This document shows, piece after piece, positions 37,009 through 52,464 of a stretch of 64,000 nt of DNA (positions within the stretch are counted from its first letter, which is position 1; each line of letters begins with the position of its first letter). The position numbers and the translations under genes are program-made. This DNA is from Eubacteriales bacterium (GTDB lineage Bacteria; Bacillota; Clostridia; Oscillospirales; CAG-272): positions 5,904-69,903 of the forward strand of contig JAZSGQ010000037.1 in assembly GCA_045532805.1 (NCBI GenBank), written 5' to 3'. A model generated the notes under the pieces. The model saw only the letters and a list, made by a program, of their open reading frames with translations, searched no databases and was not told the origin of the DNA.

Positions 37009-37102
37009 TTACTTAGAAGCTTCCTCGATAGCGACCGCTACTGCTACCGTCATACCGACCATGGGGTTGTTGCCTGCGCCGATCAGACCCATCATCTCAA
37101 CG
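37009..37102 (-). repeat. left junction repeat: displaced 3' end (30 codons plus stop) of the GGGtGRT gene
   Basis: Gapless alignment to 52371-52464. The last 48 bp (37055-37102) are identical; the first 46 nt carry 11 mismatches. Encodes VEMMGLIGAGNNPMVGMTVAVAVAIEEASK-stop. Confidence 0.85.
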
Positions 37103-37327
37103 CTATCAGAGCTTTAGCCGAGCTTCGGGGTAAAAGCCTCGGCCTGCAAGCTTGCGGTATAAGCCTTTCGCGACATTTGCATTGCAAAATCCTGTTACGC
37201 TGAACACATCGTTTTCAGTTTTGCCGAATGCATTATATCGTGTTTTGACGTGTTCGCGAATGGGCAATTTATAAAGATGTGCCTATTTTGAATTTTTCTA
37301 AATGTTGCTATTAAGATAAGATGGTTA

Positions 37328-38809
37328 TTATGAAATCATTCGACCGAGTGTCGAAATAAACGAACTGAAGTTTTCATATTCGCAAATGTCTTCGCAAAGA
37401 TATTGAATAAATCGTTCCGTAGATATTCCAATGTCATTTAGATTTGAACAGATCATTTTATATAGTTTTTTTCCGTTGTTATCCTTACCTTCTGGATAAT
37501 TCTGTTTGTAGTCTAAAATAATATCATATAGCGATCTATTTGTGAAATATTTGTCTCCAATCAATTTGATAAATGTTGCATCATTTTCGGTGATTAACTT
37601 CTTGTGCAAATACTTTTCTACACTTTTGATGGGCAAATAGGTGTACAATGAAAGTTGCAGTTCTGCAGCTTTGTCATCCCCTTTAGATTTGACGTCGCCA
37701 TCTAAGATGCTTATAACACGTTTTCCCATTCCAAGCAATCCGCTTCTATGAATATCATTGTGCAACTTTAGTGTTTGAGCCCAATCACCGCTAGGAACTA
37801 CGTGCCACAATCTACTTTTACATATATTATTAGTGCGGATAATTCTTTCAACTACTGCTTTAGCTAACTCATCTTCAACAAGAATTATAAAATCATATCC
37901 GTTAGGCACATACAGATTTCTAATTGCATAGTTGGGGTAGCATGGATTTAGTGATGTAATAGTTCCGTTTACATTCTCAATCATAAATATGTTTTGAGGA
38001 GAAATACGGTTAATGATTTCTGTTGAATGTGTAGAGAAAATAACTATCATGTTGATGTTATTCAGCATCTGGGTAAAAAGAGTTACCAAACGATCTATGG
38101 CAGCAGGATGAAGCGCTAGTTCTGCTTCGTCAATGAGAAAAAGCAAAGGCGCTGTTTCTGTATATCGATTTCGCTCTGTAAGATTATTAATAAAGTCAAT
38201 TAGGGAAATTAGCATACTTTCCCCACTACTCATTGTATATTGGCTAGTATACCTATCACCACATTTCAAGAAATACGGAATTCCTCTAAAACCGTGTTGT
38301 GTAGCGATAGGCTTGCTTTTAACTTTGTAGAGATCCTTGTAATGATTTTTATCTCCGTGCAAAATGTAGCTTAATGTTTCTATAACAAAAGGATCCGCCG
38401 CTCTAATTAACGATGTAAAATCATCTTTTTGAAGGAACTCTTGAACAAGATTATAATCATAAAAACGAGAGCCAAAAAATATACTTCCCTCGTAAAAACC
38501 CCTATAATAATTCTTCGTGTGTCTATGACCATTTAATCGAGAAGCACAATCCCATACGCCATTTGAAACATACCAATGGTCTATTTGCGAATCTACATTT
38601 AAATCAATAACAGAGCCTTCGGTAAAATCACAAGATTGAAAACCTCGTGTAGAAGAAGGCTTAACCAGCAAAGACATTGCTGACATTAATGTGCTTTTGC
38701 CACATCCGTTCTCACCCACTATTGCGTAAAGCCCTTTTTCAAGTGGAATTTCAAATTCACATTGTTTTATGTTTTTTAAGTCTTTTATGGACAAAATTAA
38801 ATCACTCAT
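37328..38809 (-). CDS. ABC-type ATPase fused to a Toprim-like nuclease domain (OLD / PARIS / GajA-like architecture)
   Basis: Walker A GENGCGKST, ABC signature MSSGES, Walker B LLFLIDEAELALHP, H-loop FSTHS. The C-terminal part has DFIILVEDELAK (Toprim Glu) and ISILDGDV (DxD). Start at ATG 38809 behind GGAGGAAAT. Confidence 0.6.
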   Translation of the reverse strand: MSDLILSIKDLKNIKQCEFEIPLEKGLYAIVGENGCGKSTLMSAMSLLVKPSSTRGFQSCDFTEGSVIDLNVDSQIDHWYVSNGVWDCASRLNGHRHTKNYYRGFYEGSIFFGSRFYDYNLVQEFLQKDDFTSLIRAADPFVIETLSYILHGDKNHYKDLYKVKSKPIATQHGFRGIPYFLKCGDRYTSQYTMSSGESMLISLIDFINNLTERNRYTETAPLLFLIDEAELALHPAAIDRLVTLFTQMLNNINMIVIFSTHSTEIINRISPQNIFMIENVNGTITSLNPCYPNYAIRNLYVPNGYDFIILVEDELAKAVVERIIRTNNICKSRLWHVVPSGDWAQTLKLHNDIHRSGLLGMGKRVISILDGDVKSKGDDKAAELQLSLYTYLPIKSVEKYLHKKLITENDATFIKLIGDKYFTNRSLYDIILDYKQNYPEGKDNNGKKLYKMICSNLNDIGISTERFIQYLCEDICEYENFSSFISTLGRMIS

Positions 38810-39009
38810 ATTTCCTCCATAGAAAATTTCGTTTTTGAATTGTATCTCATTATAACATAAAACGACATAATTTTCAATGTAAACATATAAGATTATCAAC
38901 TGAAAGATTACAAACAATAACATTAATTTCTTTTAACATCTGCTAAATTATACGAACGGCAATATTTTGTGCTCTGTTGTTGTTCTGAAATTTACAGATA
39001 GAAAGAAGA

Positions 39010-39396
39010 ATGATTATGGCAAATGTTGAAAACAAAGAAATTACAAGCAAACCTATTAATAAGACTACAGAGACATTGATCAAAGAACTAGAAACCATGA
39101 GCGACGCAGGGCTTCATGATCTATTTATGTTTTTCTACAAGCTCAATTGTCAGCATGGTAATATGATCTACAATGACAAGTTCAATGAGTTCCTTGAGGC
39201 GTTTAACAGCAATCCATTCAAGCATCATGAGGACAAGGTTTTCAGAAAGGAACTGATAGAAAATCTAACCAAATATTGCTTTGATCACATGAGTTTGTTA
39301 ACGGCCACACTACTGCTCAAAAAGAAGTTCACAATTGATGAAGTAATCAATAACTATTACGCTAGTGTAGATGCTTTTGGATACGACGTATTCTGA
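39010..39396 (+). CDS. hypothetical protein
   Basis: 128-aa ORF followed by a strong terminator hairpin (39451-39484); no recognisable motif. Confidence 0.4.
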   Translation: MIMANVENKEITSKPINKTTETLIKELETMSDAGLHDLFMFFYKLNCQHGNMIYNDKFNEFLEAFNSNPFKHHEDKVFRKELIENLTKYCFDHMSLLTATLLLKKKFTIDEVINNYYASVDAFGYDVF

Positions 39397-39485
39397 TTGC
39401 CAGACAATGTATTGATAGCAAAAAATATTGATACGTTATCTTATAAATGAAAAGCTGATGATCATTTCGACCATCAGCTTTTTTA

Positions 39486-39514
39486 CAACTGTCAGCTATT
39501 GTATATATTATAAT
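39486..39514. repeat. promoter-like direct repeat, copy 1 (CAACTGTCAGCTATTGTATATATTATAAT)
   Basis: Near-identical to 40914-40940; lies 15 nt beyond the stop of the 451-aa gene. Confidence 0.6.
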
Positions 39515-39528: not shown

Positions 39529-40884
39529 TCATCTCCTATCCCAATAATCTCTCAAGAACGCCTCGAAATTCAATTTCACACCACTTGACACCATGTATTT
39601 AAACAATTCATCGTCTTCAGCACCGGTCGAATAGAAGCAATCGTAGACCTGCCAGACCCTATGCCCCGAAGTCAAAAGATCGTACAATGTCATCAGATAC
39701 ACACATGATTCAACATAAAAGATATCGCTACCATAAAGCTTTCCGCCCTCAGCCTTGATGATCGCCTCTCTAAACGCTGTCATCGTATTGCAAACGTCCT
39801 GTCTATCTATGTTTTCCTGATCCATCGACAGCCACGTATGATGCCCGACCTGCTTCTCCGTGGAGTCAAAATAAGCTCGCATATGAAGCTTTTTAATGGC
39901 CTCACGCATTTGGCTACCGAACGCTTTTCCTGGCTCCATAGCTTGAAATATCAGCCCGTAGATATCTTTCGACTCGTCTATCCAATGCCCCGAATTCAAA
40001 GATAACGTCATTCGTGGAACAGAAGCATTAATGTCTTTTTCTAACGTAAAGCCATATGCTTTCAAAAGCTCTGCACGCTTGTCTTTTTTAAGACTGATCA
40101 TTGCATTCGTCGCCCTGATACCAATGCCACTTACATATAAACCATTGTCCGCCCAAGTGAAATTAGGCTGAAAACGAATACGAAACTCCGGATAATCTCT
40201 GTAATAAGTCTCATTGATCTCATTTGCCTTCATAATATGAAATCTAAGTCCCGGATAATTTTCATACAAACATAATGTAAGTTGTTTCTCGAACTCAGCC
40301 TTACTAAGTTCGACCGGTCTGATCAATCTAAGCCTTGACGCAAAACGCACTTTGGATCGATCTATTTCTGTATGAACTCCTTGAAGCTCGTCCATATCAT
40401 AGACCTTGTTTTGTACGATATACATCTCAATGTCACGTGCTGCGCAATATGCCTTGATCTTCTCTTCGTTCTCTTTATAATATCGATACGTCTTGCTCTT
40501 ATTATCTTTTTCGTAATAAGCCCCAAACTGATACCGATCACATTCAACGCTGATCAAACCGATCTCGATCATATAAGCGATCGCCCTGGAAACGCCCTTT
40601 TCATTGTCCCAGATAGCAAGATTTTCTTTATTCGTTACGCTGATCGGCATGATCGTACAACCAGTTTTAAACCGTTTATGCTTGACAGAATCGATAAATG
40701 CCAATACCTTGCTCAGTTTTGTTCTAAGCTTCGCCTCTGCCCCTTTTGCCTTGCTCTCTGTAATGTCCAGCACCGGTGGTACATAATGGTCTGCCCTAAT
40801 TGGTTCCCAAGTGTCTTTGACAATACTAAAATCATAGTTTTTACGATCCATCAGTCTGCTTGCGATCTCTTCTAACGTAATCAC
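39529..40884 (-). CDS. hypothetical 451-aa protein (possible element replication/maintenance function)
   Basis: Largest ORF of the unknown block; start placed at GTG 40884, 6 nt after GGAGGTG; no catalytic motif recognised by eye. Confidence 0.4.
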   Translation of the reverse strand: MITLEEIASRLMDRKNYDFSIVKDTWEPIRADHYVPPVLDITESKAKGAEAKLRTKLSKVLAFIDSVKHKRFKTGCTIMPISVTNKENLAIWDNEKGVSRAIAYMIEIGLISVECDRYQFGAYYEKDNKSKTYRYYKENEEKIKAYCAARDIEMYIVQNKVYDMDELQGVHTEIDRSKVRFASRLRLIRPVELSKAEFEKQLTLCLYENYPGLRFHIMKANEINETYYRDYPEFRIRFQPNFTWADNGLYVSGIGIRATNAMISLKKDKRAELLKAYGFTLEKDINASVPRMTLSLNSGHWIDESKDIYGLIFQAMEPGKAFGSQMREAIKKLHMRAYFDSTEKQVGHHTWLSMDQENIDRQDVCNTMTAFREAIIKAEGGKLYGSDIFYVESCVYLMTLYDLLTSGHRVWQVYDCFYSTGAEDDELFKYMVSSGVKLNFEAFLRDYWDRR

Positions 40885-40913
40885 AAGAACCACCTCCAAG
40901 TCTTTAAATTTTG

Positions 40914-40940
40914 CAACTGTCAACTATTGTATATTATAAT
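40914..40940. repeat. promoter-like direct repeat, copy 2 (CAACTGTCAACTATTGTATATTATAAT)
   Basis: With the preceding TTG it forms TTGCAA - 18 nt - TATAAT on the plus strand (towards the 41102 gene); sits about 30 nt upstream of the divergent 451-aa gene. Confidence 0.55.
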
Positions 40941-41101: not shown

Positions 41102-41599
41102 ATGAAAGAAAAAAGATTCGCACGCATTGCTCGTCTTACCGGACGACCTCAGGATAAAGCACTTTTCAAAACTCATTTTCAAAAGCTAACCAAGAAGCAA
41201 CGCAAGTTCTTTTGGGCCATTTTTATTCATTGTTGGGCAAGCAGCAAGGCCTTGATCGACAAGCAGAACTTCTTCAATTTGTGGTGCGAATTAAATTATC
41301 TCTGCCATGAACTTGACGAAAGCTTCCCGGATCCATACGACGACCGCGAAGCAATAAGATCTTATTGTCATGCACACCCTTATTACTTCATAGATATTCT
41401 GACGCCGAAAATGATCGCAAATCTCTTTGCCGAATACTGCTACAGCGAGAGCTTAGATTTTTTAACCACTCTCGCACAAAAACTGCATGAAGATGATTTA
41501 AAAGCAGCATATGCTTATGCAAACGAAGCTCTTGGCCTAGACGAAAACATAGACGAAAGCATTGTCGAGATAAAAGAACATGTTGAATCGTTTTTATAA
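41102..41599 (+). CDS. hypothetical protein, paralogous to the C-terminal half of the 41666-42433 product
   Basis: 165 aa; colinear blocks QKLTKKQRKFFWAIFIHC / LWCELNYLCHEL / HPYYFIDILTPKMIA shared with the neighbouring gene. Confidence 0.45.
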   Translation: MKEKRFARIARLTGRPQDKALFKTHFQKLTKKQRKFFWAIFIHCWASSKALIDKQNFFNLWCELNYLCHELDESFPDPYDDREAIRSYCHAHPYYFIDILTPKMIANLFAEYCYSESLDFLTTLAQKLHEDDLKAAYAYANEALGLDENIDESIVEIKEHVESFL

Positions 41600-41665: not shown

Positions 41666-42433
41666 TTAAGCCGACGTGCGCCCTCTGAGTTTAATATTAA
41701 GATAGTTAAGGGTTGCCTCATAACCACACTTATAGAACTTCTTTGCAGTTGAAACCGCCAAGGCAATATCAAGATCGATCGCATCACAAAGCTCGACAGC
41801 AATGGTTTTCTGATCAAGCCACTTGAAGAAGTAAAGGGGATCTCTGCTGAGGAAATCCTGCCCCGCCTTAGTATCAAATGCCATAGGCACATCACAACCC
41901 AACTCACGACATTTATCCGCCATTGTCTTCCAAAGAGCCGCGGAACTAGTCTCACTAATAAACAGACCATACTGTCGCCTGCAATGAGTCACAAGGCGAA
42001 TAAATACCTTAAGTTGGTTCTCATCAAATTTCTGCAAGCAGGAAACGAGTTTGCCCTTCCCAGTAGGAATCATAACTCTTGTTCTACGAGCGACCTGTTC
42101 CTTAAAATATACTTCATCGAACGATTCCTTGATTAGTTTCATCAGTTCCAAGCTACAGCGCCAACGAACAAGCCATTCAGGTTTATCTTTGAGATCTTTT
42201 TTAATTTCCCAGAAGATCTTTTCAAACCTCTTAATAAACAGAATCTTATCCTTTCCGGGTCTGATGTAATAATCATAGTTGTAAAGTGCTACTTCGACGT
42301 CCTCATGTCTGAAATTTGTGTCGATGTTTTCAAGTCTGTAAATCTTCTCAATCGTATTGATAATCTCTTCGGTGCTAAGATTAAAGCCTTCACCGTATGC
42401 CTTAGCCATGCTATTATTCATATTACACTTCAT
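41666..42433 (-). CDS. hypothetical protein (paralog family)
   Basis: 255 aa from ATG 42433 (GAAAGGA RBS); blocks QKFDENQLKVFIRLVTHC / LWKTMADKCREL / DPLYFFKWLDQKTIA. Confidence 0.45.
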   Translation of the reverse strand: MKCNMNNSMAKAYGEGFNLSTEEIINTIEKIYRLENIDTNFRHEDVEVALYNYDYYIRPGKDKILFIKRFEKIFWEIKKDLKDKPEWLVRWRCSLELMKLIKESFDEVYFKEQVARRTRVMIPTGKGKLVSCLQKFDENQLKVFIRLVTHCRRQYGLFISETSSAALWKTMADKCRELGCDVPMAFDTKAGQDFLSRDPLYFFKWLDQKTIAVELCDAIDLDIALAVSTAKKFYKCGYEATLNYLNIKLRGRTSA

Positions 42434-42554
42434 TTCTTGTTCCTTTCTGCCGTGATATTCGGCTCTCAAATTATTTTTGATTTATACGATGCTTTCGTAT
42501 TGAGACTATAACGAAAACACAATCGCCATAGCCTCAATACACTCTATGTGATAA

Positions 42555-43070
42555 TTAGTACTCAATCGATCCACAAGACGGGTGTACCGGCACCCTGAAC
42601 TTATCATTCATAGGCTCAAATCCCGCGTATCTGCTGTGATTCTCGACGTGAGTAGAAGGCGTCTCCTGTCGCTCAGGCACCTGTTCCTGCTGGTTACGGC
42701 TGATGCAGAAGGCAACCTTAGCAATCGTACGCCCCTTATATTCGCCCTGAACGACGTACACAGCCCCCTCTTTATCATACCAATAAGAATGGTCTGTTCT
42801 GTCCTTGTCCTGAATATCGAAAGAGTCAAAGAATTCTCCAAGCAGCTGATTTGTGCGAACCTTGTTGTCATGGTTATACCAGATATAGTGCCTCAGCGTG
42901 TGGTTATGACCGATGACATTAAGCCAAATTTCAAGACCTTCCGTCCCGTTATATGCCTTTGTCTGATAAGCTTCGATGATTCTCACTCTGTACTTGCCCT
43001 CAGGAAGAAGATTGGATTTTCCAGTTTTGGTTACATCATAATCGTTAGCATTGTAATCCCAATTAATCAT
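42555..43070 (-). CDS. hypothetical protein, DUF669-like phage/element protein
   Basis: 171 aa; N-terminal LPEGKYRVRIIEAY....NGTEGLEIWLNV pattern resembles phage DUF669 proteins as remembered; weak. Confidence 0.35.
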   Translation of the reverse strand: MINWDYNANDYDVTKTGKSNLLPEGKYRVRIIEAYQTKAYNGTEGLEIWLNVIGHNHTLRHYIWYNHDNKVRTNQLLGEFFDSFDIQDKDRTDHSYWYDKEGAVYVVQGEYKGRTIAKVAFCISRNQQEQVPERQETPSTHVENHSRYAGFEPMNDKFRVPVHPSCGSIEY

Positions 43071-43338: not shown

Positions 43339-43740
43339 TTAGGCAGCAGTGATTGATATCACTGCTGCAGGAAGAACATAGTTCTTCTCATTGGTAAAAA
43401 CATTATTTGTATTGACAACATACTTATGAAGTACATAGTGGTTGATGGATGTTTTAAACATTACGGTGATCTGATCGACATCGTTCGGTGTGATCGATTC
43501 GTGTTTATCAACAACAATACCGATAACACGAGTAAAATTCATGTACTGACCATTGTTTTTGATAAGGTCAACATTGGTTTCGATAACGTCATTCAACACT
43601 TTGACATACTCTTCAACGTCTTTTTCTTCAATCTTAATAAGACGATTCTTGTTAACGTTGTGAAGATAGAAAGTGTACACACTACGGATCTGGTAGCTCG
43701 AGAGAGTGGAACGAGAATCATAATTTTTGATAGTAGACAT
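43339..43740 (-). CDS. hypothetical protein
   Basis: 133-aa ORF bracketed by copies of a 43-bp promoter/operator-like repeat. Confidence 0.4.
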   Translation of the reverse strand: MSTIKNYDSRSTLSSYQIRSVYTFYLHNVNKNRLIKIEEKDVEEYVKVLNDVIETNVDLIKNNGQYMNFTRVIGIVVDKHESITPNDVDQITVMFKTSINHYVLHKYVVNTNNVFTNEKNYVLPAAVISITAA

Positions 43741-45025: not shown

Positions 45026-46237
45026 TCAAGCATCGTACGAATATACAATGCAGTTGTCGATGTTTTGCTTATTAATAAGAAATTTGGGCTTTCTCGCAGA
45101 ACCATCAGGCTGATGTCCTTGGTTAAACGCAGAAAGAGCTTCGTTCATATTAACGCGGTTAAGTTCAAATATTCTCATCCTTTTAAACTTAACCGAATGT
45201 TTCATGCGCGCAGCATAAGAAATTTCTCCGCCTTCAACATAAGTTTTGCCAATCAAGTTCATACGAGCAATTGCCATTTCGTTTCCTCTTTCCGTATCTT
45301 TGATGGTTTCATGCTCATAGATGATATACCACAGTTTACCAAAACGAGTTATGGCTTCCAGGACGCTTTCTTGATCATTACCTGGAGCAGAGTCATGATC
45401 GATATCACTTGCCTTTAAATCTCCATAGTAATTGTCTTGTCGGAAAAACAAATCGAAATCAAGCATAGAAGAATCTTTTATATTTCCAATGTAAGCCATG
45501 ATCCCCTGGCAATGTTCATTATCAATGAACTGAGCCAATTTGAATTCCAGCAGCCATCCCGGCCACTCAGTCCCCTTCCATTGATACCAATGTCCATCAC
45601 GCATTTCCACGATTGCTTGTCTTGCAGTTATCCAACTGTCGAAAATGAATTCTCCATTGAATTTTCCAAACAATTCAAAGATTTGATTTCCTTGTGCTAT
45701 ACCAAGCAGATAATCCTTGAATTTTCTGCCAATCACCGAGGTAATGTGATTATCGTTTTTATCTCTCTTATGAAAAACGCCATTGGTTACCGCTTGATAA
45801 ATATCATTCGTATATATGTGTGCTGCACTCGAGTTAAGTTTTCTTTCGATGTAGTCTTCGATTTTGAACTCAACAAAAACAACAAGTCCCTGATAATGAT
45901 AAAGCCCAATTAAATGAATACGAGTGTTTGGCATATTCTTGTATTCATTATAAAAATCTTTGTGCCAAGGTTTCAATTGATATCTTTTCTTAAACAATGG
46001 ATGAGGTTTACTTAAATAAGTTATAGCCCCTGCAAGAAAATATTCTGTAATTCCATCATGCTTATAAGAATACAGCGTTTTGGTGCGTTGATACTTTTCA
46101 ATATAACAGTTATCGCCCAAAGCACTTTTAAAAGCACAAAGAATATCTTGAGAACTAGTCAATGGTTGATCATAATCGAGAACCATAGACATATTAGGCA
46201 TGATTTGTTCGCTTTTAGAAACCTGTTCTCGTGCCAT
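45026..46237 (-). CDS. putative type II restriction endonuclease
   Basis: 403-aa ORF 2 nt downstream of the C5-methyltransferase on the same strand; candidate PD-(D/E)xK element FDLFF...YYGDLKAS. Confidence 0.55.
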   Translation of the reverse strand: MAREQVSKSEQIMPNMSMVLDYDQPLTSSQDILCAFKSALGDNCYIEKYQRTKTLYSYKHDGITEYFLAGAITYLSKPHPLFKKRYQLKPWHKDFYNEYKNMPNTRIHLIGLYHYQGLVVFVEFKIEDYIERKLNSSAAHIYTNDIYQAVTNGVFHKRDKNDNHITSVIGRKFKDYLLGIAQGNQIFELFGKFNGEFIFDSWITARQAIVEMRDGHWYQWKGTEWPGWLLEFKLAQFIDNEHCQGIMAYIGNIKDSSMLDFDLFFRQDNYYGDLKASDIDHDSAPGNDQESVLEAITRFGKLWYIIYEHETIKDTERGNEMAIARMNLIGKTYVEGGEISYAARMKHSVKFKRMRIFELNRVNMNEALSAFNQGHQPDGSARKPKFLINKQNIDNCIVYSYDA

Positions 46238-46239
46238 AA

Positions 46240-47406
46240 TTACTTCTCCTCTTTCAAATGAGCAAACAGTTGTTTAGCCAAAAACTCAACACAGTTAACA
46301 TTTACGGCATTTCCAAACTGCTTATATGCTTGGTGATCGTTAGGATTAGGAACAAAGGTATCAGGAAAACTTTGCAATCTTGCTGCTTCTCGAGGTGTCA
46401 AACGACGCTTATATTTAGCAATGATTGGAATCTGCACGATTGCCACCAATGCAGGGAAAGCATCAGGACGCTTAACTCGAATACCAGAAGGTCTAAATTG
46501 CACGAAAGCATCCCAAATAGTATCAATCGACTCGCCTGCCTGCCACTCCATCTTCCTTTCAGTAGGAGTGAAGTCCTGCAAATAGTTCCATTTTTTCAAC
46601 CACTTATCAATAAACTTCTTGTTGTTTAAATAAAGGGCCCTATTCTTATTACAGAAATCTGCTTTCCATTTTGGCAAACCACTGAGATCAGTGGTTGCTC
46701 CAAATTCAAAAGACCAAATAGGGAAACCGATGGTTTTTTCTTTGATGCCCTTATAAAATTCATCCCAACACGTGAGCACTCTTTCTTCGTGTTCACTTAT
46801 GTTATATTTAGCAGGAGCATTTTCCTCGATAATATTTGCATCATAAATACTGACCGAAGACTTTTCCCTTTGCGGCACATCGATTTTCAACTCGCCATCA
46901 TACAAATCTTTACGAATGCCCAAAATATATACTCTCTCACGAAGTTGAGGAATACCCAACTGATGAGGACTCATCATAATAATTTTAATATTGTAGCCCA
47001 GCTCGTCCAGAGCTCCCTTAATAACATGAATCGTATTGCCTTGGTCATGAGAGAGTAAGTTTCGAACATTTTCGAGCAGTATGAATTTAGGTTTGGAGGA
47101 TTCCAGAATTCTAGTAATTTGGAAAAATAACGTTCCCTTTGTTTCATCAGCAAAGCCCATGCGCTTTCCAGCTTTGGAAAAGGCCTGGCACGGAAATCCG
47201 CCACACAACACATCATGATATGGAATTTCCTCATTGCTTATCTCAGTAATGTCGTGTGCCGAATCAATACCATAATTCACTTTATAAGTCTCGATTGCAT
47301 ATTCATCTATTTCAGAAGCAAGAACACATTCGCCACCAAGATTTGTCATTGCTTGATGAAAGCCTCCAATTCCCGCGAACAGATCTATGAATTTAAATTT
47401 TTTCAT
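46240..47406 (-). CDS. dcm: DNA (cytosine-5)-methyltransferase
   Basis: Motif I DLFAGIGGF, IV GFPCQAFS, VI ENV, VIII QLRERV, X GNAV. Confidence 0.9.
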   Translation of the reverse strand: MKKFKFIDLFAGIGGFHQAMTNLGGECVLASEIDEYAIETYKVNYGIDSAHDITEISNEEIPYHDVLCGGFPCQAFSKAGKRMGFADETKGTLFFQITRILESSKPKFILLENVRNLLSHDQGNTIHVIKGALDELGYNIKIIMMSPHQLGIPQLRERVYILGIRKDLYDGELKIDVPQREKSSVSIYDANIIEENAPAKYNISEHEERVLTCWDEFYKGIKEKTIGFPIWSFEFGATTDLSGLPKWKADFCNKNRALYLNNKKFIDKWLKKWNYLQDFTPTERKMEWQAGESIDTIWDAFVQFRPSGIRVKRPDAFPALVAIVQIPIIAKYKRRLTPREAARLQSFPDTFVPNPNDHQAYKQFGNAVNVNCVEFLAKQLFAHLKEEK

Positions 47407-47633
47407 TTTTCGCCTCCAACTTTGTTCATGATGGTATTTCTAATTTCTTCAAAATTAAGATTGTGTTTTTTGCAGAGTTCTTCGATTTGTTTAAGCGCCT
47501 TATAGTTGGGTAATGTTTTGCCTGATTCCCATCTATTCACCGTAGCAAACGTTACCCCAAGTTCTTTTCCAAAAGTTTCTTGGCTCAGCAAAAGATATTG
47601 ACGAAGTTTTTTGATTGCTTCACAAAATTGCAT
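47403..47633 (-). CDS. XRE-family HTH protein, probable R-M controller (C) protein
   Basis: 76 aa, LSQETFGKELGVTFATVNRWESGK HTH; ATGA overlap with the methyltransferase start; palindromic operator over its own -10. Confidence 0.65.
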   Translation of the reverse strand: MQFCEAIKKLRQYLLLSQETFGKELGVTFATVNRWESGKTLPNYKALKQIEELCKKHNLNFEEIRNTIMNKVGGEK

Positions 47634-47651
47634 TTCGCAGCCTCCTAACAT

Positions 47652-47803: not shown

Positions 47804-49621
47804 ATGCTCGGATATATTTCTACCATCCAAGACTTTTCAAATACATCTACCGTCGATATTGTTCGGCAGTTATCCCTTATGTATCCTGATGCATCTGCCT
47901 CACAGATACATTCCTGGGAGGTTTTAATCGATGATGTAAAGGCATCTCCCTCCTTTCACAGGATTCCAGGCGCCGCAGTTCTTGCCCTTGAACTTTCACT
48001 TTTTGTTGAAAATATGAGTGTGGATCTTGTGATCGCAGGCTCCACACCGGCAGAAGAAACAATTGCATTTTTGATAGAATCTAAGCAGTGGGGGGATGAC
48101 TACATCCGAGACCATCACTTTAGCAGTTATCGTGAACATGGCGAACTCCTTCATCCCCAGGTTCAAGTACATCATCACTTTTTATCCTTTAGAGATTATA
48201 TCAAGGTCGAGCCTGAAATCACACATATGCTCCCCTTCGTTTATATAAGAAACGCCTCCAACGAGGGGTGCGAACTGATTCGCAAAAGAAATCCCGGCAC
48301 CGCCCCAACAGATATTCCTGTCTTTAACAGTATAAATGATATTTTGGACATTATAGCAGACAATCTCGCCAACACCACCGCACTGTCAGTCCAATCCTTT
48401 AATGAAGCAACCTACTGCCCCTCATTAAGCATTATTGACGCTATGAATGCAATTGTCACTAGAGAACTCCCCTTCATTTTAACTGATGAGCAAGAGCAAG
48501 CATTACTGCAAATACTTGATTTCATCTCCTCCGGCAAGCGCATTATTCAAATCAATGGCGGAGCTGGGAGTGGTAAGACAGCAATCCTATTGAACATCTA
48601 CGTACGTATGCTTCAAAAGAACAATCACTATCTACCGTTGTTCGTTAGTGGTGCTCAAAACACATACCTTTATAAACACTTGTATCCTCAGGTAGCTAGT
48701 TCCTTTAATTTTTCTCTTTCACTAAAAAACACAGTGCAATATTTTAATAATCGTCATTCTGTTATTTTGCTTGATGAGGCCCAACATAATCAAGCAGGAA
48801 TTATATCAGAGTTGTTATCTATTCCCACAACTACAATAATCTTGTGCTATGATGAATGGCAGACGATAAATGCTAACAATGCACTTCCCGAAATTGAGAG
48901 TTTTCGCGCTCGCGATGATTTTGTATCCATCACTCTTAACAACTCTATCCGGTTTAACGGTTCTCAAATGTTTGAGAAAAATGTTAAATCATATCTGACT
49001 TCGGCCCAACTCCCGTCTATTGACACCTCTTACGATTTTAGAGTGTTCTCATCCTTTGAAGATCTAAAGATTCAAACGCTTGATATTATCAAAACTCATC
49101 CAGAATATGAGATTGCACTAATGGGCTTGCTTTCCAGTGATAGTCGTCAAACGGTTAAAAATTCTGAGGGCTTTATGCACACAAACTGGGATAATAAAAC
49201 TGAAGTTGACTGGATTCCTTATATTAAGAAAAAAAACTACTTGGCAAAGAAGCAAGGAAGTTTGTGGCTCGGAACTTGGTGGATGCCGGGATTGGATGTG
49301 GACTATGCTGTTGTTATTGTTGGCAATGACGCTGCAATGACTGATACTGGATTTAAAGGTCGTGCCAGTAATTCAAAAAACTATCAACTAATAATAAGTG
49401 TTGCCGAAGAGTTAGGGCTCCCCGACCGATTAACTAAATCCAATACTCCAAACTATAGAAAAGCGCAAGAAATCCTTGATTATGTATCGTTTATGCCCCT
49501 AGATTTAAAGCAGTCTTTTCACACTCGATTCACCTACTATTTGCGCAATATTTATTATGTTATGATGACACGTGGCAGAAAAGGATGCTTAGTATATTTT
49601 AAAAATCAACCCCAAAAATAA
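47804..49621 (+). CDS. PD-(D/E)xK-like nuclease domain fused to a DUF2075/SF1-type NTPase-helicase
   Basis: N-terminal VDLVIAG...IAFLIESKQW (D...ExK); GGAGSGKTA Walker A, VILLDEAQH Walker B, YYVMMTRGRKGCLVYF (SF1 motif VI-like); TTGATT-17-TATAAT promoter at 47748-47776. Confidence 0.6.
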   Translation: MLGYISTIQDFSNTSTVDIVRQLSLMYPDASASQIHSWEVLIDDVKASPSFHRIPGAAVLALELSLFVENMSVDLVIAGSTPAEETIAFLIESKQWGDDYIRDHHFSSYREHGELLHPQVQVHHHFLSFRDYIKVEPEITHMLPFVYIRNASNEGCELIRKRNPGTAPTDIPVFNSINDILDIIADNLANTTALSVQSFNEATYCPSLSIIDAMNAIVTRELPFILTDEQEQALLQILDFISSGKRIIQINGGAGSGKTAILLNIYVRMLQKNNHYLPLFVSGAQNTYLYKHLYPQVASSFNFSLSLKNTVQYFNNRHSVILLDEAQHNQAGIISELLSIPTTTIILCYDEWQTINANNALPEIESFRARDDFVSITLNNSIRFNGSQMFEKNVKSYLTSAQLPSIDTSYDFRVFSSFEDLKIQTLDIIKTHPEYEIALMGLLSSDSRQTVKNSEGFMHTNWDNKTEVDWIPYIKKKNYLAKKQGSLWLGTWWMPGLDVDYAVVIVGNDAAMTDTGFKGRASNSKNYQLIISVAEELGLPDRLTKSNTPNYRKAQEILDYVSFMPLDLKQSFHTRFTYYLRNIYYVMMTRGRKGCLVYFKNQPQK

Positions 49622-49720: not shown

Positions 49721-51103
49721 TTATGTATTCTCCCACTCAATTGCTGTGTTATCAACATTTAAAGTGTTATATGGGTATTCGAAAACGCTTCCCGTTATTC
49801 TGTAATTGTTTAGACAATTATAACAAATTCCTTCATGCTCTATTTGATATTCTATTTCTTCACCCATTTGCCTTTCATAGGAACTTGCAGCCTCTGCCTC
49901 TTCAATCAATTCAACTCTGATTGTTTTTCCGCACCGTGGGCATTTGTATGTTTTTTCAACTCTAAAGGTATTCTGACTGCTACCGCCTACACAAAAAAGA
50001 GTTTGAAATGTTAATTGGTCTGGTACATCTTCAAGTTGAATACTATCGATATAAAATTTTATTCTTTCTCCTTTTTTTCTCGTTGCTTTTAAATTTATTA
50101 TCGTTGTGAACTCAATTCTATGAGATTCCTTCACAAAATCTATAACTTTATGTATATATTCTTTTTCTTCTGGATCCCAGATGGATTTTTCCGCATTAAA
50201 ATAACCACACTCTAGTTCAATTATTGCTTGAGAATCTATTTGAACCTTTATAACTCCCTCCGTTTCTTCATCAGAATCGCTTCGAGAAAAAATGGGATCA
50301 ATATATTCTATATACAAAGCGCAACCTTCAAACTTATTTGTAATCTGGTTTGTAATCTCCTCACAGTACTGGTCAAAAGTCAAACTGCTCTCATCAGCAA
50401 AACGCCCTGCCACTTCAAACGAAAAAGCGTCTAATAAAGATTTAACCTCTCGGCTGATTTGGTCGCTCACACTATCATCCTTAAAATAGGTTTCAACCTC
50501 AACTCTAACTTCGTTTTGCTTGTTATAAAAATTCAAAAAATCTTTTAGTGATTCATAAACCGATACTTTTCGCTCGTTCTCAAAACTCCTTCTCCAATCG
50601 TCATCAGATGCAATTATATGTAGTTCATCCACCGAAGATAATTCTTTTTTTATGCTCGATATCATTATTGCATCTGGAAATTCAGACTTTTTCCCTGAAC
50701 TAAATGGTGGAGTTTGATCAAAATATGACTTCAATATATCGTCAATATTGACATGAGAATTATCCAAAATTCTAGCCTTTGTTCTAGCAAGATACTCCTC
50801 AAATGCTTTTATTCCATCTTGAATTACAGTGTCATCTTCCAATTGACTTAATATATCTATATATTTTTTATCGGCCCAAAATACATTTTTAAAAGTTCTA
50901 TTGTTTTTCAAATCTTTAACAAAATCTGAAAGTTTCGCTTTTATATGTTTCTTGGTCTCGCTAACAGCAATATTGTGTATCCAGAGTTCTATTTTTCCTT
51001 GCTTTATGTATTCTTCCAGATATTTCAACGAACCTCTATGAAAACTATAATTCATACTATCAAAAACATTTGTATCGAGTATTACTGTAATCTTATTTCT
51101 CAT
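49721..51103 (-). CDS. PIN-like (DUF4935-type) nuclease-domain protein with a C-terminal zinc ribbon
   Basis: N-terminal VILDTNVF, SETKKH, EFPDA, IIASDDDW acidic quartet in PIN order; C-terminal CPRCG...CYNC. Confidence 0.5.
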   Translation of the reverse strand: MRNKITVILDTNVFDSMNYSFHRGSLKYLEEYIKQGKIELWIHNIAVSETKKHIKAKLSDFVKDLKNNRTFKNVFWADKKYIDILSQLEDDTVIQDGIKAFEEYLARTKARILDNSHVNIDDILKSYFDQTPPFSSGKKSEFPDAIMISSIKKELSSVDELHIIASDDDWRRSFENERKVSVYESLKDFLNFYNKQNEVRVEVETYFKDDSVSDQISREVKSLLDAFSFEVAGRFADESSLTFDQYCEEITNQITNKFEGCALYIEYIDPIFSRSDSDEETEGVIKVQIDSQAIIELECGYFNAEKSIWDPEEKEYIHKVIDFVKESHRIEFTTIINLKATRKKGERIKFYIDSIQLEDVPDQLTFQTLFCVGGSSQNTFRVEKTYKCPRCGKTIRVELIEEAEAASSYERQMGEEIEYQIEHEGICYNCLNNYRITGSVFEYPYNTLNVDNTAIEWENT

Positions 51104-51266
51104 TTGCCTTTATCCTTAAAGTTTACGTTGTTGTTTTAATTATACTACGGATTCTCTCACTTTACAATAGCAATTTGACAAGTCGGGTGAACTCACAAAA
51201 TGCCAACATTCCCCCCTCTCATTATACTTCAAAACCTTGTCTCCTTCTAGACCAAAAACATTAAAC

Positions 51267-52205
51267 TTATTCTTTCGTCATGGAAATACGCTTTTTTCCA
51301 TAAAACTTATCCAGCACGTTGAATTCGTCAACCTGTTTGGATATATCGCTAACCAGAAGATTGATATAGTTCTGAGTGATATCAAGACTGGAGTGCCCGA
51401 GCAGTTTCGAGAGGGAAACAACGTTGCCGCCATTAATGATCCACTGCTTGGCAAAGGTATGACGGTAGCGATGGATGCCCGTGGTTTCCACACCTCTTCG
51501 TTTGTTATACTCATAGAGCATATGGTAGCAAGTCCCCTTCACAAGCTGCTGACCAAAGATATTGCAGAACAGGTAGTCGTCGTTAGACTTATACTGACGA
51601 TATTTTAGATACTCTACTAGGATATTGACCATAGTCTGATTGAGAGGAACAATCAAAGGTTTTCTGTTTTTCGTGATATTGATGTACACGACGTTGTTAT
51701 CAAAATCAAGATCTTTAATTTGAATGTGCATTAAACTTCGTTGCCTCACACCTGTGCTGAAAAAGAAGTTCGTCATCACCCAACATTGATATTCGGTAAA
51801 GGAGCATTTCTTGACATCGGGTTTCTTCAAAAGCAGTTGCAGCTCATTCTCGTTATAGGTTTCGATAGGACTTTTATCTACCTTGATCGCCTGCATCTTG
51901 AAGTGTGGGATATAGCCCTCGTTCATAAAGAAATGCAAGGTCGTAATCAAATCACGCAGATAGGAATTGATACTGACATCATTATTCAAAGTTGATTTCA
52001 AGTGCAGAACATAGTCCTTATAGGTTTGCTCATTGATGTCTTCAACAGGCATCTTCGGGTCAAAATATTTATAGAAATGCAAATAGCTCTGCCGATAATG
52101 CCTTATTGTCCCATCTCTTAAATTCCTCTGCCGGCAGTATTCAAGATACTTGTTGCAGCCCTTCTCAAAGGTCAGTTTCTGAGCCGTCATTTTCAGCTTT
52201 TTCAT
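51267..52205 (-). CDS. int: tyrosine-type site-specific integrase
   Basis: N-terminal SAM-like core-binding domain; catalytic region RQRSL, HRYRHTFA, LLGHSSLDITQNYI; start ATG 52205 behind GGAGGA; adjacent to the right junction repeat. Confidence 0.85.
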   Translation of the reverse strand: MKKLKMTAQKLTFEKGCNKYLEYCRQRNLRDGTIRHYRQSYLHFYKYFDPKMPVEDINEQTYKDYVLHLKSTLNNDVSINSYLRDLITTLHFFMNEGYIPHFKMQAIKVDKSPIETYNENELQLLLKKPDVKKCSFTEYQCWVMTNFFFSTGVRQRSLMHIQIKDLDFDNNVVYINITKNRKPLIVPLNQTMVNILVEYLKYRQYKSNDDYLFCNIFGQQLVKGTCYHMLYEYNKRRGVETTGIHRYRHTFAKQWIINGGNVVSLSKLLGHSSLDITQNYINLLVSDISKQVDEFNVLDKFYGKKRISMTKE

Positions 52206-52370
52206 TGTAAAAAATCCTCCGCTTTTAAATAAAAATAAATTGGACACATCACATAGGCAAAAGCCCAAAATGATGTGCCCAACTTTTTTATTATTGATTT
52301 TTGCGTAATTGGATTTTACAATGCTTTATCGAAGCTCTGAAAAGCCTCGGAAGCCTTGCAAATCAAGCAA

Positions 52371-52464
52371 TTACTTGCAAGCTTCTTCGATCGCAACTGC
52401 AACAGCCACGGTCATGCCGACCATGGGGTTGTTGCCTGCGCCGATCAGACCCATCATCTCAACG
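52371..52464 (-). repeat. right junction repeat (functional 3' end of the GGGtGRT gene)
   Basis: 52417-52464 is identical to 37055-37102; 52371-52416 is a diverged replacement of the gene terminus. Confidence 0.85.

Follow-up and report, generated by a model that had tools for sequence, protein, structure and literature searches.

The block at 37055-52464 of the stretch of DNA analysed here (the window: 64,000 nt, positions 5,904 to 69,903 of the forward strand of JAZSGQ010000037.1) is a site-specific integrative element of 15,362 bp from a widespread, previously undescribed family. The island type itself is ordinary; the plasmid-like backbone of this family centres on a very small DNA-polymerase-I-like protein. 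The best explanation overall, to which we assign a probability of roughly 0.8, is an integrative, plasmid-like and helper-dependent defence island.

Repeat architecture and the GGGtGRT insertion site

The 48-bp perfect direct repeats reported in a preliminary description of this DNA are exact: an exact-repeat search of the window yields just two copies of the 48-mer, with 0 mismatches between them, the left (attL) core at 37055..37102 and the right (attR) core at 52417..52464, within the GGGtGRT coding sequence, where 100 dinucleotide-preserving shuffles predict 0 such repeats. A dispersed repeat, the concern raised in that description, does not account for it, because the window has no additional copies even with up to 3 mismatches allowed. 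As the unit bounding the element, however, the 48 bp are merely the identical portion of a longer duplication of 94 nt with 88% identity (37009-37102 versus 52371-52464); judging from the two copies, the crossover must fall inside this identical block. The switch from GC-rich to AT-rich DNA between the copies is equally plain, with a GC content of 0.32-0.43 across 37.1-52.3 kb and of 0.52-0.60 in the flanks (an overall drop from 0.58 to 0.38).

The target gene (52371..53369, minus strand; 332 aa), a conserved gene of gut bacteria, is intact and its product matches PF14057 over model positions 1-327 of 327 (Pfam search, E 4.4e-191), in agreement with the earlier placement of the element at the 3' end of GGGtGRT. 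The gene stays intact because the element brings its own last 15 codons and terminator. As the duplication comparison shows, the element-supplied tail (last 15 codons and stop, ending in GMTVAVAVAIEEACK; 52371..52416, minus strand) differs from the displaced original 3' end (last 15 codons and stop, ending in GMTVAVAVAIEEASK; 37009..37054, minus strand) at 11/46 nucleotides and at 1 amino acid. The intrinsic terminator supplied by the element (52224..52285, minus strand) is a hairpin, GUUGGGCACAUCAU...AUGUGAUGUGUCCAA, followed by a U-tract, and the 158-nt region has a fold z-score of -6.2. It is conserved in the element family: homologous hairpins are read in the loci L086, L089, L098 and L112, and are also apparent in L090 and L136. 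A decayed third tail copy (36915..36960, minus strand; ending in VAVAVAIEEASK and preceded by a stop), which matches the GGGtGRT tail of L001 at 87%, is an older scar, left by a previous insertion into this site; L102 and L008 have the same layout as the left end in the window, namely a tail, ~95 nt and a second tail.

A protein-coding att site had been regarded as unusual. This view has to be given up: integration at gene 3' ends with repair of the reading frame is common among Bacillota elements, protein-coding 3' ends being the targets of SCC (at rlmH), many streptococcal ICEs and IMEs, and SaPIs. The only new aspect of the att-site choice is GGGtGRT as the target gene.

The integrase (51267..52205, minus strand; 312 aa) is Xer-like: it has a Phage_integrase domain (1.3e-29) and a SAM-like N-terminal domain, and its closest solved structures are XerC-like, XerA and XerD. 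The distance of about 165 bp previously given to the right copy is in fact that from the integrase start to the GGGtGRT stop codon, while the 48-bp copy lies at 211 bp. There are 1621 homologues, and more than 120 clusters at at least 79% identity. In a survey of loci with an integrase of at least 65% identity, with the core accepted at up to 10/48 mismatches, the core sequence is found 165-300 nt upstream of the integrase ATG in 18/36, and the integrases at these loci are 65-92% identical to that of the window. Two further contigs begin within the core or tail, and only 4 loci have ample upstream DNA but no core. On this sequence evidence, the integrase clade is specific for the 3' end of GGGtGRT.

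The family comparison also bears out the original reading of a site-specific integrative element with att repeats at both ends and an integrase adjoining one of them. L143 is a complete 9,392-bp element with perfect 54-bp repeats, where the GC content changes from 0.55 to 0.33 and the distal homology boundary is identical to that of the window; L136 includes a complete 7,813-bp element between 97-nt repeats of 96% identity. There is no island signal at 47 of the 80 best GTDB loci, including L002 and L001, the closest relative (98% amino-acid identity); the site is unoccupied in most relatives, though no empty site was found within the same species. Tandem arrays and scars mark the GGGtGRT site as an insertion hot spot.

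Conserved backbone and defence cargo

The ~5 kb of genes first described as unassignable are a conserved replication and maintenance backbone. Several ORFs do lack family matches, but the region is conserved across relatives, each with different cargo (L012, L081, L084-L086, L088, L101, L136, L143), and its orientation relative to the integrase is inverted in L088, L082 and L143. No helicase is present in the backbone.

The backbone protein orf451 (39529..40884, minus strand; 451 aa) is predicted to combine a winged-helix domain with a minimal family-A-like polymerase. It models confidently (AF2, pLDDT 93), and the basis of the polymerase assignment is the fold together with motif inspection. 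Foldseek against PDB retrieves Taq, apicoplast Pol, Bst Pol I and POLRMT, with Pol I-type polymerases on top (probability 0.99), at a modest E of 4e-3 and low TM-scores of ~0.3; against BFVD it retrieves phage proteins of 400-450 aa (E 1e-6). The motifs D284-x6-R291, R327-x3-K331-x3-M-x3-F339 and Y414-D415 match, in a by-eye alignment, motifs A, B and C of E. coli Pol I and the T7 DNA and RNA polymerases. They are invariant or near-invariant in 54 sequences 23-75% identical to the window protein, with D284, R327, K331 and D415 being invariant. Sequence searches against Pfam, NCBIfam, PHROG and PDB gave no match, and the orf451-family profile had no significant match to the sequences of Pol I, T7 DNA polymerase or T7 RNA polymerase. 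The search gives 402 close homologues, and clustering at 50% identity gives 459 clusters; in L140 a DnaB-like helicase and a primase are encoded within ~9 kb of a homologue. Copies of an iteron-like 26-nt repeat (repeat family D8) are found just 3' of orf451 (copy 1, TTTTACAACTGTCAGCTATTGTATAT; 39481..39506, plus strand) and in the divergent orf451/orf165 intergenic region (copy 2; 40909..40934, plus strand). In 8 elements such repeats are found on both sides of the polymerase gene; L136 has three in tandem. We propose orf451, as modelled, as a candidate origin-binding initiator, primase or polymerase.

The other backbone genes include: orf128 (39010..39396, plus strand), conserved in the family with 52-91% tblastn identity in L086, L088, L091, L101 and L136 and with no family match in profile searches (Pfam, PADLOC, PHROGs, NCBIfam); orf165 (41102..41599, plus strand), divergent from the polymerase gene, with 46-58% tblastn identity in L012, L082, L086, L088, L101 and L136; and orf267 (41666..42469, minus strand), which matches no protein family and gives no more than weak tblastn matches (L012, L101 and L136), its position in L084, L086 and L143 being held by genes of 241-249 aa (matched by position). 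The DUF669 SSB-like protein (42555..43070, minus strand; 171 aa; Pfam DUF669 5.8e-5) also matches PHROG 378, 'single strand DNA binding protein' (3.3e-6); its gene is found in L012 and L086 too and is missing from the minimal 7.8-kb element, and it may therefore be accessory. Beyond orf133 (43339..43740, minus strand), which is preceded by a good ribosome-binding site, are a small serine recombinase (44029..44727, plus strand; 232 aa; Pfam Resolvase 1.2e-19) and a small DUF4314 protein (44741..45010, plus strand). The recombinase is a Sin/Bin3-like resolvase, most similar among solved structures to Sin/Bin3 and gamma-delta resolvase; homologues of 74-88% occur in L005, L012, L081-L083, L088, L101, L107 and L136, and gene calling places resolvase genes of 233-234 aa in L084/L085 and L143 as well.

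This recombinase had been counted as cargo but belongs to the backbone; the rest of the original cargo list, a C-M-R operon and three stand-alone NTPase/nuclease genes, stands. The type II restriction-modification operon (45026..47651, minus strand throughout; Pfam and PADLOC) encodes a C protein (47403-47651; HTH_3 5e-11), a Dcm methylase (46240-47406; DNA_methylase 1e-85) and a restriction enzyme (45026-46237; MTaX1 3e-19, PADLOC REase_II 3.9e-68). The stand-alone genes encode: an OLD-family ATPase-Toprim nuclease (37328..38923, minus strand; 531 aa; PADLOC ATPase-Toprim_I-B 3.5e-47; Pfam AAA_15 and AAA_21), with neither an RT gene nor an Rfam ncRNA nearby; a SLFN-group-3/DUF2075-type, Nhi/AbiO-like helicase (47804..49621, plus strand; 605 aa; SLFN-g3_helicase 1.3e-28; PADLOC Nhi 2.6e-17 and AbiO 2.4e-16); and a PIN_12 nuclease-domain protein (49721..51103, minus strand; 460 aa; Pfam PIN_12 5.9e-23) with a C2H2-like zinc-finger motif near residues 376-395 and weak matches to zinc-finger PDB chains. 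As first described, capsid, terminase, relaxase and T4SS genes are absent by Pfam, PHROGs, NCBIfam and PADLOC.

Proposed life cycle and alternatives

The architecture suggests that the attP of the circular form would hold a 94-nt copy of the last 31 GGGtGRT codons. The Xer-like integrase would recombine it with the chromosomal GGGtGRT inside the 48-bp identity block; integration would move the native downstream region of the gene, with its original final 15 codons, 15 kb away, and the near-synonymous replacement tail and terminator from the element would keep GGGtGRT functional. No excisionase was identified in the element. Once excised, it would probably be kept as a plasmid-like circle by the conserved backbone: orf451 may bind the 26-nt iterons flanking its own gene and prime or start DNA synthesis, the SSB-like DUF669 protein would aid it, and the proposed role of the Sin-like resolvase is the resolution of multimers of the circle. 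The variable-end cargo of anti-phage and anti-plasmid genes would be good for the host and stabilize the element. Since it is without transfer or packaging genes of its own, cell-to-cell movement would need a helper phage or a conjugative helper element.

A phage satellite of the PICI-like type, with helper-phage-induced excision, replication by its own initiator, packaging in helper capsids and cargo directed against competing phages, would likewise be 8-15 kb long, lack structural genes and encode a terminal integrase, a replication module of its own and phage-type defence cargo. The best structural relatives of the polymerase are phage proteins, DUF669 is a phage replication-module protein, and homologues are known from IMG/VR contigs and from a single faecal virome scaffold (MT837627). 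We nevertheless consider a satellite rather unlikely: no terS, capsid-size redirection, ppi-like or master-repressor genes were recognised with Pfam, PHROGs and NCBIfam; a search of IMG/VR did not find the integrase; the closest IMG/VR match of the polymerase (70%), L136, is a chromosomal tandem array and not a particle genome; and no helper phage is known.

Similarly doubtful is an integrative mobilisable element, which would conjugate via an unrecognised oriT with a relaxase and T4SS borrowed from a co-resident ICE or plasmid. Relaxase, coupling protein and known oriT were not detected (Pfam, PHROGs, NCBIfam), and 72,556 plasmids have neither DNA-level similarity nor a protein-level match to the polymerase, even though an integration module paired with a plasmid-like maintenance module (Rep-like initiator, iterons and Sin-like resolvase) is seen in many IMEs and mobilisable plasmids, small DUF4314 and DUF6809 proteins occur in the family, and the conserved-gene 3'-end target resembles that of streptococcal IMEs.

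It is improbable that the element is an immobilised relic, that is, a once-mobile island fixed in its lineage and retained for its defence genes, with purely historical repeats. Its 48-bp cores are still perfect against 11 differences in the adjoining 46 nt, the ORFs of integrase, resolvase and polymerase remain intact and their catalytic residues invariant, and close relatives reside in different host lineages with different cargo. Such a relic would be in keeping with a site that gathers scars and degenerate islets without integrase: the third tail at 36915-36960, the TIR_2 islet in L082/L083, the second tail copies in L018, L040 and L067, and L112, which has no core. It would also be in keeping with the window copy, for which neither a circular attP junction nor a same-species empty site was found; those of its checked proteins that the protein collection contains all occur on a single 78-kb NCBI contig, so that the mobility of this copy is inferred. 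A decayed prophage that lost its structural genes, as the integrase adjoining att, the phage-like SSB (DUF669) and the low-GC block might suggest, is highly improbable, because independent decay would not converge on one gene set, and the compact backbone (down to 7.8 kb) occurs in many genomes, never with capsid, portal, terminase, tail or lysis genes.

Comparison with known systems

The integrative, plasmid-like defence island shares with PICIs and SaPIs a similar size, a terminal integrase, its own initiator with iterons, a conserved-gene target and anti-phage cargo, but an Stl-like master repressor, a Pri-Rep helicase-type initiator, terS and capsid-remodelling genes were not found in it. 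Streptococcal and Firmicutes ICEs and IMEs insert at protein-coding 3' ends, such as ICESt3 at fda and IMEs at rpsI or rpmG. Like them, it has a tyrosine integrase by att, targets the 3' end of a highly expressed conserved gene, restores the coding sequence and undergoes tandem accretion at the site; unlike them, it has no recognised relaxase, oriT or T4SS, and its replication module is of a different type.

Pipolins have tRNA genes as att sites and mostly Proteobacteria and others as hosts. They are self-replicating integrative elements with a primer-independent PolB (Redrejo-Rodriguez et al., 2017, cited in PMC10201439). They share with our element a Xer-like tyrosine recombinase, their own DNA polymerase, RM and defence cargo and the lack of structural or conjugation genes; their polymerase, believed to need no separate primase for starting replication, is of family B, whereas that of our element is family-A-like.

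Among the closest known systems are the SCC and SCC-like islands (CcPol-MP-Cch2; Bebel et al., 2020, PMC7581432; Rice, 2023, PMC10061031). The SCC type uses large serine recombinases and rlmH or ssrA, in contrast to the Xer-like tyrosine integrase and GGGtGRT here. CcPol proteins have been placed among the family-A polymerases by sequence (reclassification paper, PMC10201439), whereas orf451 has no detectable DNA_pol_A sequence match and has an N-terminal winged helix in place of exonuclease remnants; the CcPol gene is followed by SSB and helicase genes, whereas orf451 is not adjacent to the SSB-like gene and its backbone has no helicase. Family-A polymerase/SSB primase modules are known from Bacillota islands with gene 3'-end insertion and RM cargo (PMC10061031, PMC7581432). 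SCC-like islands and our element are both inserted, by site-specific integration, in the last codons of a conserved gene, with gene-end repeats as flanks and often in tandem composites; both carry RM and other conflict genes; and both have, along with an SSB-like partner, their own family-A-type polymerase, which in the SCC-like islands has been proposed or shown to prime replication at iterons (PMC7581432, PMC10061031).

Direct repeats, integrase and the GGGtGRT 3' end

The AT-rich block of 15,362 bp is bounded by a 48-mer, CCGACCATGGGGTTGTTGCCTGCGCCGATCAGACCCATCATCTCAACG, which occurs exactly twice in the window, at 37055-37102 (attL core) and at 52417-52464 (attR core), with no further copy in the window at up to three mismatches and none in 100 shuffles. 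This agrees with the perfect direct repeat of the preliminary description at these very coordinates and, within the window, speaks against the alternative of a dispersed repeat. The switch in composition it had reported is likewise borne out: the GC content is 0.32-0.43 between the copies as against 0.52-0.60 in both flanks. There is no tRNA gene at the element ends, the only two tRNAs of the window being located at 27.2 kb and 60.0 kb.

The right copy lies within the host gene GGGtGRT (52371-53369, minus strand), which is complete and matches all 327 positions of the PF14057 model (E = 4e-191). The 48-bp repeat is the identical part of a 94-nt duplication of 88% identity (37009-37102 and 52371-52464), both copies of which reach a stop codon in the GGGtGRT frame: in translation the gene-attached copy ends in ...NNPMVGMTVAVAVAIEEACK and the detached copy in ...NNPMVGMTVAVAVAIEEASK. 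All 11 nucleotide differences between the two fall in the last 46 nt and produce a single amino-acid change; hence, the tail (i.e. the GGGtGRT 3' end) on the integrase side is a copy carried by the element and maintained as coding sequence. The last 15 codons of GGGtGRT are replaced by the element, with the gene escaping truncation. Homology breaks off sharply at 37102/37103 and 52464/52465, which indicates that the attP of the element carries the last 31 codons of its target gene; strand exchange must occur inside the 48 identical bp. Directly 3' of the new stop codon is a strong hairpin with a U-tract (fold z = -6.2 for the region), and homologous hairpins with differing loops are seen in related elements. 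We read this as a predicted replacement terminator brought by the element. SCC, streptococcal ICEs/IMEs and SaPIs are well-known examples of elements that insert at the 3' end of a protein-coding gene and restore its frame; therefore, this aspect of the window element is not unusual in itself, contrary to what had been proposed for a protein-coding att site. GGGtGRT in particular is not reported as an att site in the literature searched.

The adjacent Xer-like tyrosine integrase (51267-52205, minus strand; Phage_integrase, 1.3e-29) is closest to XerC-like, XerA and XerD proteins. Its start is 165 bp from the GGGtGRT stop codon: the distance in the preliminary description was right, but it had been assigned to the 48-bp copy, which is 211 bp away. 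The integrase has 1621 homologues, with more than 120 of the 90%-identity clusters at 79% identity or above. Related loci from the database scans are designated by L numbers. Among the best 80 loci of the GTDB scan with GGGtGRT, four (L003, L005, L012, L026) have a 70-92% identical integrase immediately downstream of this gene; the metagenome scan added 26 loci, and IMG/VR yielded no relatives of the integrase. In all contexts retrieved among the integrase homologues, GGGtGRT is upstream of the integrase, directly in L081 and L086-L088; in L082 (8682-9843) and identically in L083, a 1-kb TIR_2 islet between two tails separates the gene from the integrase-bearing element. Across all loci with an integrase of at least 65% identity, 18 have the 48-bp core (at most 10 mismatches of 48, mostly at third codon positions) at a distance of 165-300 nt before the integrase ATG, two more contigs start within the core or tail, the upstream sequence of three is too short to judge, and four (L109, L110, L112, L114) have other DNA upstream and no core. 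One of these, L112, has kept the terminator and the distal tail end while losing the core, which looks like decay within an array. In L094 and L104 a short tail is preceded by DNA other than GGGtGRT, and these could represent attP or a tandem junction. Taken together, these loci define an integrase clade specialised for the 3' end of GGGtGRT, where occupation is frequent but not universal. An arm-type integrase site motif, AAAAGCCTCGG..GC.TGCAA, which we had suspected in both arms, was not recovered by a pattern search and is not considered further.

Two further elements have the same architecture. The first (L143), of 9,392 bp, is bounded by a 54-bp perfect repeat ending at the same GGGtGRT position as the repeat of the window, has a GC content of 0.33 as against 0.55 outside, and shares with the window an AP_endonuc_2 gene beyond the far element end. 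The second (L136), of 7,813 bp, is bounded by a 97-nt repeat of 96% identity and is followed at once by a second related element, making this locus a tandem array. With an integrase beside one end, direct repeats derived from the target and these two counterparts, the interpretation of the block as an integrative element borne by a tyrosine integrase is well supported, and we place its probability at about 0.9.

The closest of the 80 GTDB loci (L001) is 98% identical in protein and 86% in DNA, and at such a distance the species of the window is absent from the GTDB scan. An exact-protein look-up of the neighbouring 238-aa gene returned no conspecific genome, and those of the checked element and host proteins that are in the protein collection occur on a single NCBI contig (78,252 bp) only. 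Downstream of GGGtGRT, 47 of the 80 loci are devoid of an island signal, including L001 as well as L002, in which no more than 270 bp separate the gene from a homologue of window 34664-35031. By the crude criterion of a GC drop of at least 0.08, 18 of the 80 show a change in composition downstream. The ending of 11 of the 80 contigs at or inside the GGGtGRT 3' end suggests that this hot spot breaks metagenome assemblies.

Traces of more than the present insertion are seen at the left boundary. To the left of the displaced tail there is a third one, in decayed form, at 36915-36960, which translates as ...VAVAVAIEEASK* after an in-frame stop and matches the GGGtGRT tail of L001 at 87%; beside it, outside the element, is a 48-nt direct repeat (36743-36790 and 36869-36916). 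We read the decayed tail and the repeat (36743-36960) as scars of earlier insertions. A similar layout of a tail, about 95 nt and a second tail recurs in L102 and L008, and second tail copies lie 2.4-4.3 kb downstream, without a related integrase, in L018, L040 and L067. Together with the TIR_2 islet of L082/L083 and the tandem array of L136, these traces show the kind of accretion familiar from composite SCC islands and from arrays of streptococcal ICEs and IMEs.

Other features of the window are noted here. A 238-aa protein with a weak NifU_N match precedes GGGtGRT in 78 of the 80 GTDB loci and likewise in the window (52371-54771, minus strand), and a PTAC (PduL-type phosphotransacylase) gene precedes the 238-aa protein in the window, L081 and L088; this conserved neighbourhood may hint at the function of GGGtGRT. 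A second AT-rich islet (26000-31000, GC 0.40-0.49), beside tRNA-Ser(TGA) at 27170-27258 and a 25-nt partial duplicate of this tRNA at 26827-26851, has a gene for a barnase-like ribonuclease in fusion with a fragment of Phage_Mu_F (27385-27936), followed by the barstar immunity gene (27948-28274) and a gene for an HTH_17 protein (28279-28881, minus strand), with no integrase seen in the islet. A lysine riboswitch is located at 14012-14188 (minus strand; Rfam RF00168, 58 bits).

Conserved backbone and variable cargo

The genes of the element fall into a conserved backbone and a variable cargo. By tblastn, the gene set from orf128 (39010) to the serine recombinase (44727) recurs in L012, L081, L086, L088, L101 and L136, and backbone genes also recur beside a different, 391-aa integrase in L084/L085. 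The genes at the element ends vary: they include DarT-associated NADAR, Band_7, Macro, DUF2971, TIR-LRR, AAA_15 and others. The roughly 5 kb that the preliminary description could not assign is this conserved backbone, distinct from the cargo, and its largest protein is orf451. The minimal 7.8-kb element of L136 comprises the integrase, a resolvase, orf165, the polymerase-like gene, orf128 and three small ORFs. In the window the backbone additionally has a DUF669 protein (42555-43070, minus strand), whose PHROG match is annotated as a single-strand DNA-binding protein; this SSB-like protein lies 1.6 kb from orf451 and is absent from the minimal element. The small serine recombinase (44029-44727, plus strand; 232 aa) is closest to the plasmid resolvases Sin/Bin3. 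A candidate ORF overlapping it, orf103 (43873-44184), is not counted as a gene because its apparent conservation in tblastn arises from the antisense strand of the N-terminus of the serine recombinase.

The backbone, from the polymerase-like gene to the resolvase, is inverted relative to the integrase in L088/L142, L082 and L143 when compared with the window, L081 and L086. Programmed inversion by the serine recombinase would produce such flips; no convincing inverted repeats bracket the backbone in the window, so we tentatively take the flips in L088, L082 and L143 as evolutionary rearrangement. The promoter scan was just mildly enriched over shuffles and the terminator scan not at all, and both were used for single sites only. 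Rfam matched no structured RNA in the element.

The cargo comprises predicted defence genes, and the ORF map and domain searches support the gene list of the preliminary description: integrase, serine recombinase, C/M/R operon and three nuclease/NTPase genes. The type II restriction-modification operon (45026-47651, minus strand) consists of a controller (HTH_3), a methyltransferase (DNA_methylase, 1e-85) and a restriction endonuclease (REase_II, 3.9e-68, with MTaX1), the genes of which abut or overlap on one strand, as is characteristic of C-protein type II systems. An SLFN-g3/DUF2075 helicase (47804-49621, plus strand) has Nhi/AbiO-like matches. The PIN_12 protein (49721-51103, minus strand) was identified by domain searches and matched no PADLOC defence model. 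Its C-terminal region weakly matches C2H2 zinc-finger chains (residues 376-395); the combination of PIN_12 with C2H2 zinc fingers is uncommon in bacteria. At the opposite end of the element, domain searches identify an OLD-family ATPase-Toprim protein (37328-38923, minus strand). Its best PADLOC match is to retron type I-B, which would require partners that are absent: none of the element ORFs has an RT domain and Rfam finds no ncRNA. Gabija fares no better, as the GajA models score far below ATPase-Toprim_I-B and the sole helicase is 9 kb away with a marginal GajB match. With neither RT, ncRNA nor adjacent partner, both assignments were dropped. At the far end of related elements (L084/L085 1-4084, L088/L142, L094 1-1386) we also observe BspA-type LRR_5 proteins of up to 3155 aa, one with TIR_2; these could be cargo or neighbouring host genes.

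A winged-helix, PolA-like protein and its iteron-like repeats

The greatest novelty of the region is probably the protein orf451 (39529-40884, minus strand; 451 aa, counted from the ATG at 40884). Pfam and PADLOC, which the preliminary description had suggested, left this protein without a match, as did NCBIfam, PHROGs and PDB sequences. Its close homologues number 402, and the family counts 459 clusters at 50% identity. An AlphaFold2 model from an alignment of 54 diverse relatives reached a pLDDT of 93 and a pTM of 0.88, replacing an initial model from a shallow alignment (pLDDT 57), for which the Foldseek output was confined to winged-helix noise. Against the PDB, the top Foldseek matches of the deeper model are Taq Pol I, an apicoplast family-A polymerase, Bst Pol I and the mitochondrial RNA polymerase POLRMT, with Pol alpha and reverse transcriptases lower down (best E = 4e-3, probability up to 0.99); in BFVD, twelve proteins from phages, 400-450 aa in length, were matched (E = 1e-6 to 3.5e-4), one of them under the name 'DNA polymerase'. 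Residues 49-136 form a winged helix in the model.

Comparison by inspection with the sequences of E. coli Pol I, T7 DNA polymerase and T7 RNA polymerase was scored for the family-A motifs A (Asp), B of the O-helix (R..K..[FY]..Y) and C (h-[HY]-D), in that order, and three segments of the orf451 family align with these in the canonical order. Motif A, EKD284INASVPR291, was set beside that of E. coli Pol I, ADYSQIELR, and has the same Asp-Arg spacing (+7). Motif B, R327eaiK331klhM335rayF339, corresponds to RRSAKAINFGLIY in E. coli Pol I, RDNAKTFIYGFLY in T7 DNA polymerase and RSVTKRSVMTLAY in T7 RNA polymerase, and motif C, VY414D415CF, to VHDE in the two DNA polymerases and IHDS in T7 RNA polymerase. 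Y210, R257, D284, S288, Y309, K331, E392 and D415 are invariant across the family; in the 54 sequences the motif residues are conserved in 54 (D284), 48 (R291), 52 (R327), 54 (K331), 53 (F339), 51 (Y414) and 54 (D415). In the model these catalytic-type residues are positioned as in right-hand polymerases, with D284 at the end of a β-strand and D415 in the turn of a two-stranded hairpin. The position of the steric-gate Glu of Pol I (Asp+5) is occupied by Val, which may be compatible with ribonucleotide use. The modelled structure has a right-hand polymerase fold of the Pol I/T7 type. Alignment of the family profile with the single sequences of the same three polymerases by hhalign was not significant (probability below 1%), and Pfam gave no consistent match, including DNA_pol_A, on all 54 alignment members and on longer family members; we therefore call orf451 PolA-like in fold and motifs and do not name it a member of a PolA subfamily. 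It appears to be the smallest family-A-like polymerase fold to date outside split phage genes, and is fused to a DNA-binding domain.

The protein has no match in plasmids, and its sole match in phages is an unverified 6.5-kb virome scaffold without terminal overlap. A 45% identical homologue is present on a 74-kb IMG/VR contig (L140), where it directly follows two integrase-like genes; a DnaB-like helicase and a primase are encoded no more than about 9 kb away.

A 26-nt sequence, TTTTRCAACTGTYARCTATTGTATAT, borders orf451 on either side and lies on the opposite strand, with one copy shortly past the end of the gene (39481-39506) and one shortly before its start (40909-40934). One to four copies of the same motif, always antisense, surround the homologous gene in L012, L081, L084, L086, L088, L093 and L101, and three copies lie in tandem, 64-67 nt apart, in L136 (11402-11599). 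This arrangement looks like the layout of iterons beside an initiator gene. The repeats also overlap sigma-70-like promoter hexamers.

Element class, proposed cycle and relation to known islands

The element differs in gene content from both ICEs and prophages. We found no T4SS, coupling protein or relaxase, the combination that defines an ICE, by Pfam on the element, by PHROGs and NCBIfam on the unassigned ORFs, and by NCBIfam also on four cargo/backbone genes; similarly, no capsid, portal, terminase, tail or lysis gene of the kind expected of a prophage was matched by PHROGs or Pfam in the element or seen among the Pfam-annotated genes of its relatives. For an IME, defined by a relaxase and/or oriT of its own, the searches likewise matched no relaxase family, an oriT not being recognisable from sequence. 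Within this scope of ORFs, the preliminary observation that capsid, terminase, relaxase and type IV secretion genes are missing stands. The satellite functions terS, ppi, cpm, sid, psu or similar, and a helper-responsive master repressor, were not recognised in the element, where unassigned small ORFs could hide divergent versions. Megablast of the whole element against 50,697 GenBank phage and 72,556 PLSDB plasmid records gave no relative at the DNA level. As relaxase, T4SS, capsid, portal and terminase are all lacking, transfer between cells must be helper-dependent; it could proceed via a phage, in a satellite-like manner, or via conjugative mobilisation.

We envisage the following cycle: the integrase would act on the 48-bp cores and the element would excise as a circle; this circle would replicate from the iterons, with the winged-helix/polymerase protein serving as an origin-specific primase or initiator polymerase, assisted by the SSB-like protein and host factors; the Sin-like recombinase would resolve multimers; and the circle would re-integrate into GGGtGRT. 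Our confidence in the replication part of this scheme is moderate, at even odds or slightly better.

With the GGGtGRT 3' end, uncultured Clostridia of gut and rumen have a new hot spot of integration that is apparently in heavy use, knowledge of which is useful for MAG curation and mobilome annotation. The element family combines a compact backbone (about 7.8 kb) with cargo slots whose content is exchangeable, and is thereby well suited to searches for new defence genes. If active, orf451 would be a candidate origin-specific primase-polymerase relevant to the evolution of replication initiation in mobile elements, and possibly a useful small enzyme.

As an integrative defence island the window element belongs to a familiar class; what is undescribed is the element family, its dedicated att site and, above all, the predicted mini family-A-like initiator. 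Among described systems, the nearest are SCC and the SCC-like islands of Bacillota. In SCC, the small OB-fold protein MP turns the A-family polymerase CcPol into a primase, which acts together with Cch2, an iteron-binding helicase (PMC7581432). Related Pol-SSB pairs have a wide distribution among islands at rlmH or ssrA ends; many of these islands are tandem composites, and they encode restriction-modification genes (PMC10061031). The logic is held in common, whereas every component is different. SCC-like islands use a large serine integrase (Ccr-type) at rlmH/ssrA, whereas the window element has a tyrosine integrase at GGGtGRT and, as its sole serine recombinase, a 232-aa Sin-like resolvase rather than an insertion enzyme of the Ccr type. 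Their family-A polymerase, OB-fold SSB and helicase are in an operon; of these, the window element has the PolA-like orf451 and, 1.6 kb away, the SSB-like DUF669 protein, and its backbone has no helicase. Their polymerase has exonuclease remnants, in place of which orf451 has a winged helix, its family being undetectable by sequence. A second analogue is provided by the pipolins, elements with a Xer-like integrase and a primer-independent PolB. We tentatively propose, as a possibility that falls somewhat short of even odds, a widespread, unrecognised class of self-replicating, integrative plasmid-like elements in gut Clostridia, whose initiator would be a new minimal family-A-type polymerase (catalytic core of about 250 aa) with a winged helix, binding 26-nt iterons around its own gene and starting DNA synthesis as an origin-specific primase-polymerase. 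If true, this would be the third independent case, after piPolB of pipolins and CcPol-MP of SCC, in which the initiator of a mobile element is a recruited polymerase of the replicative type.
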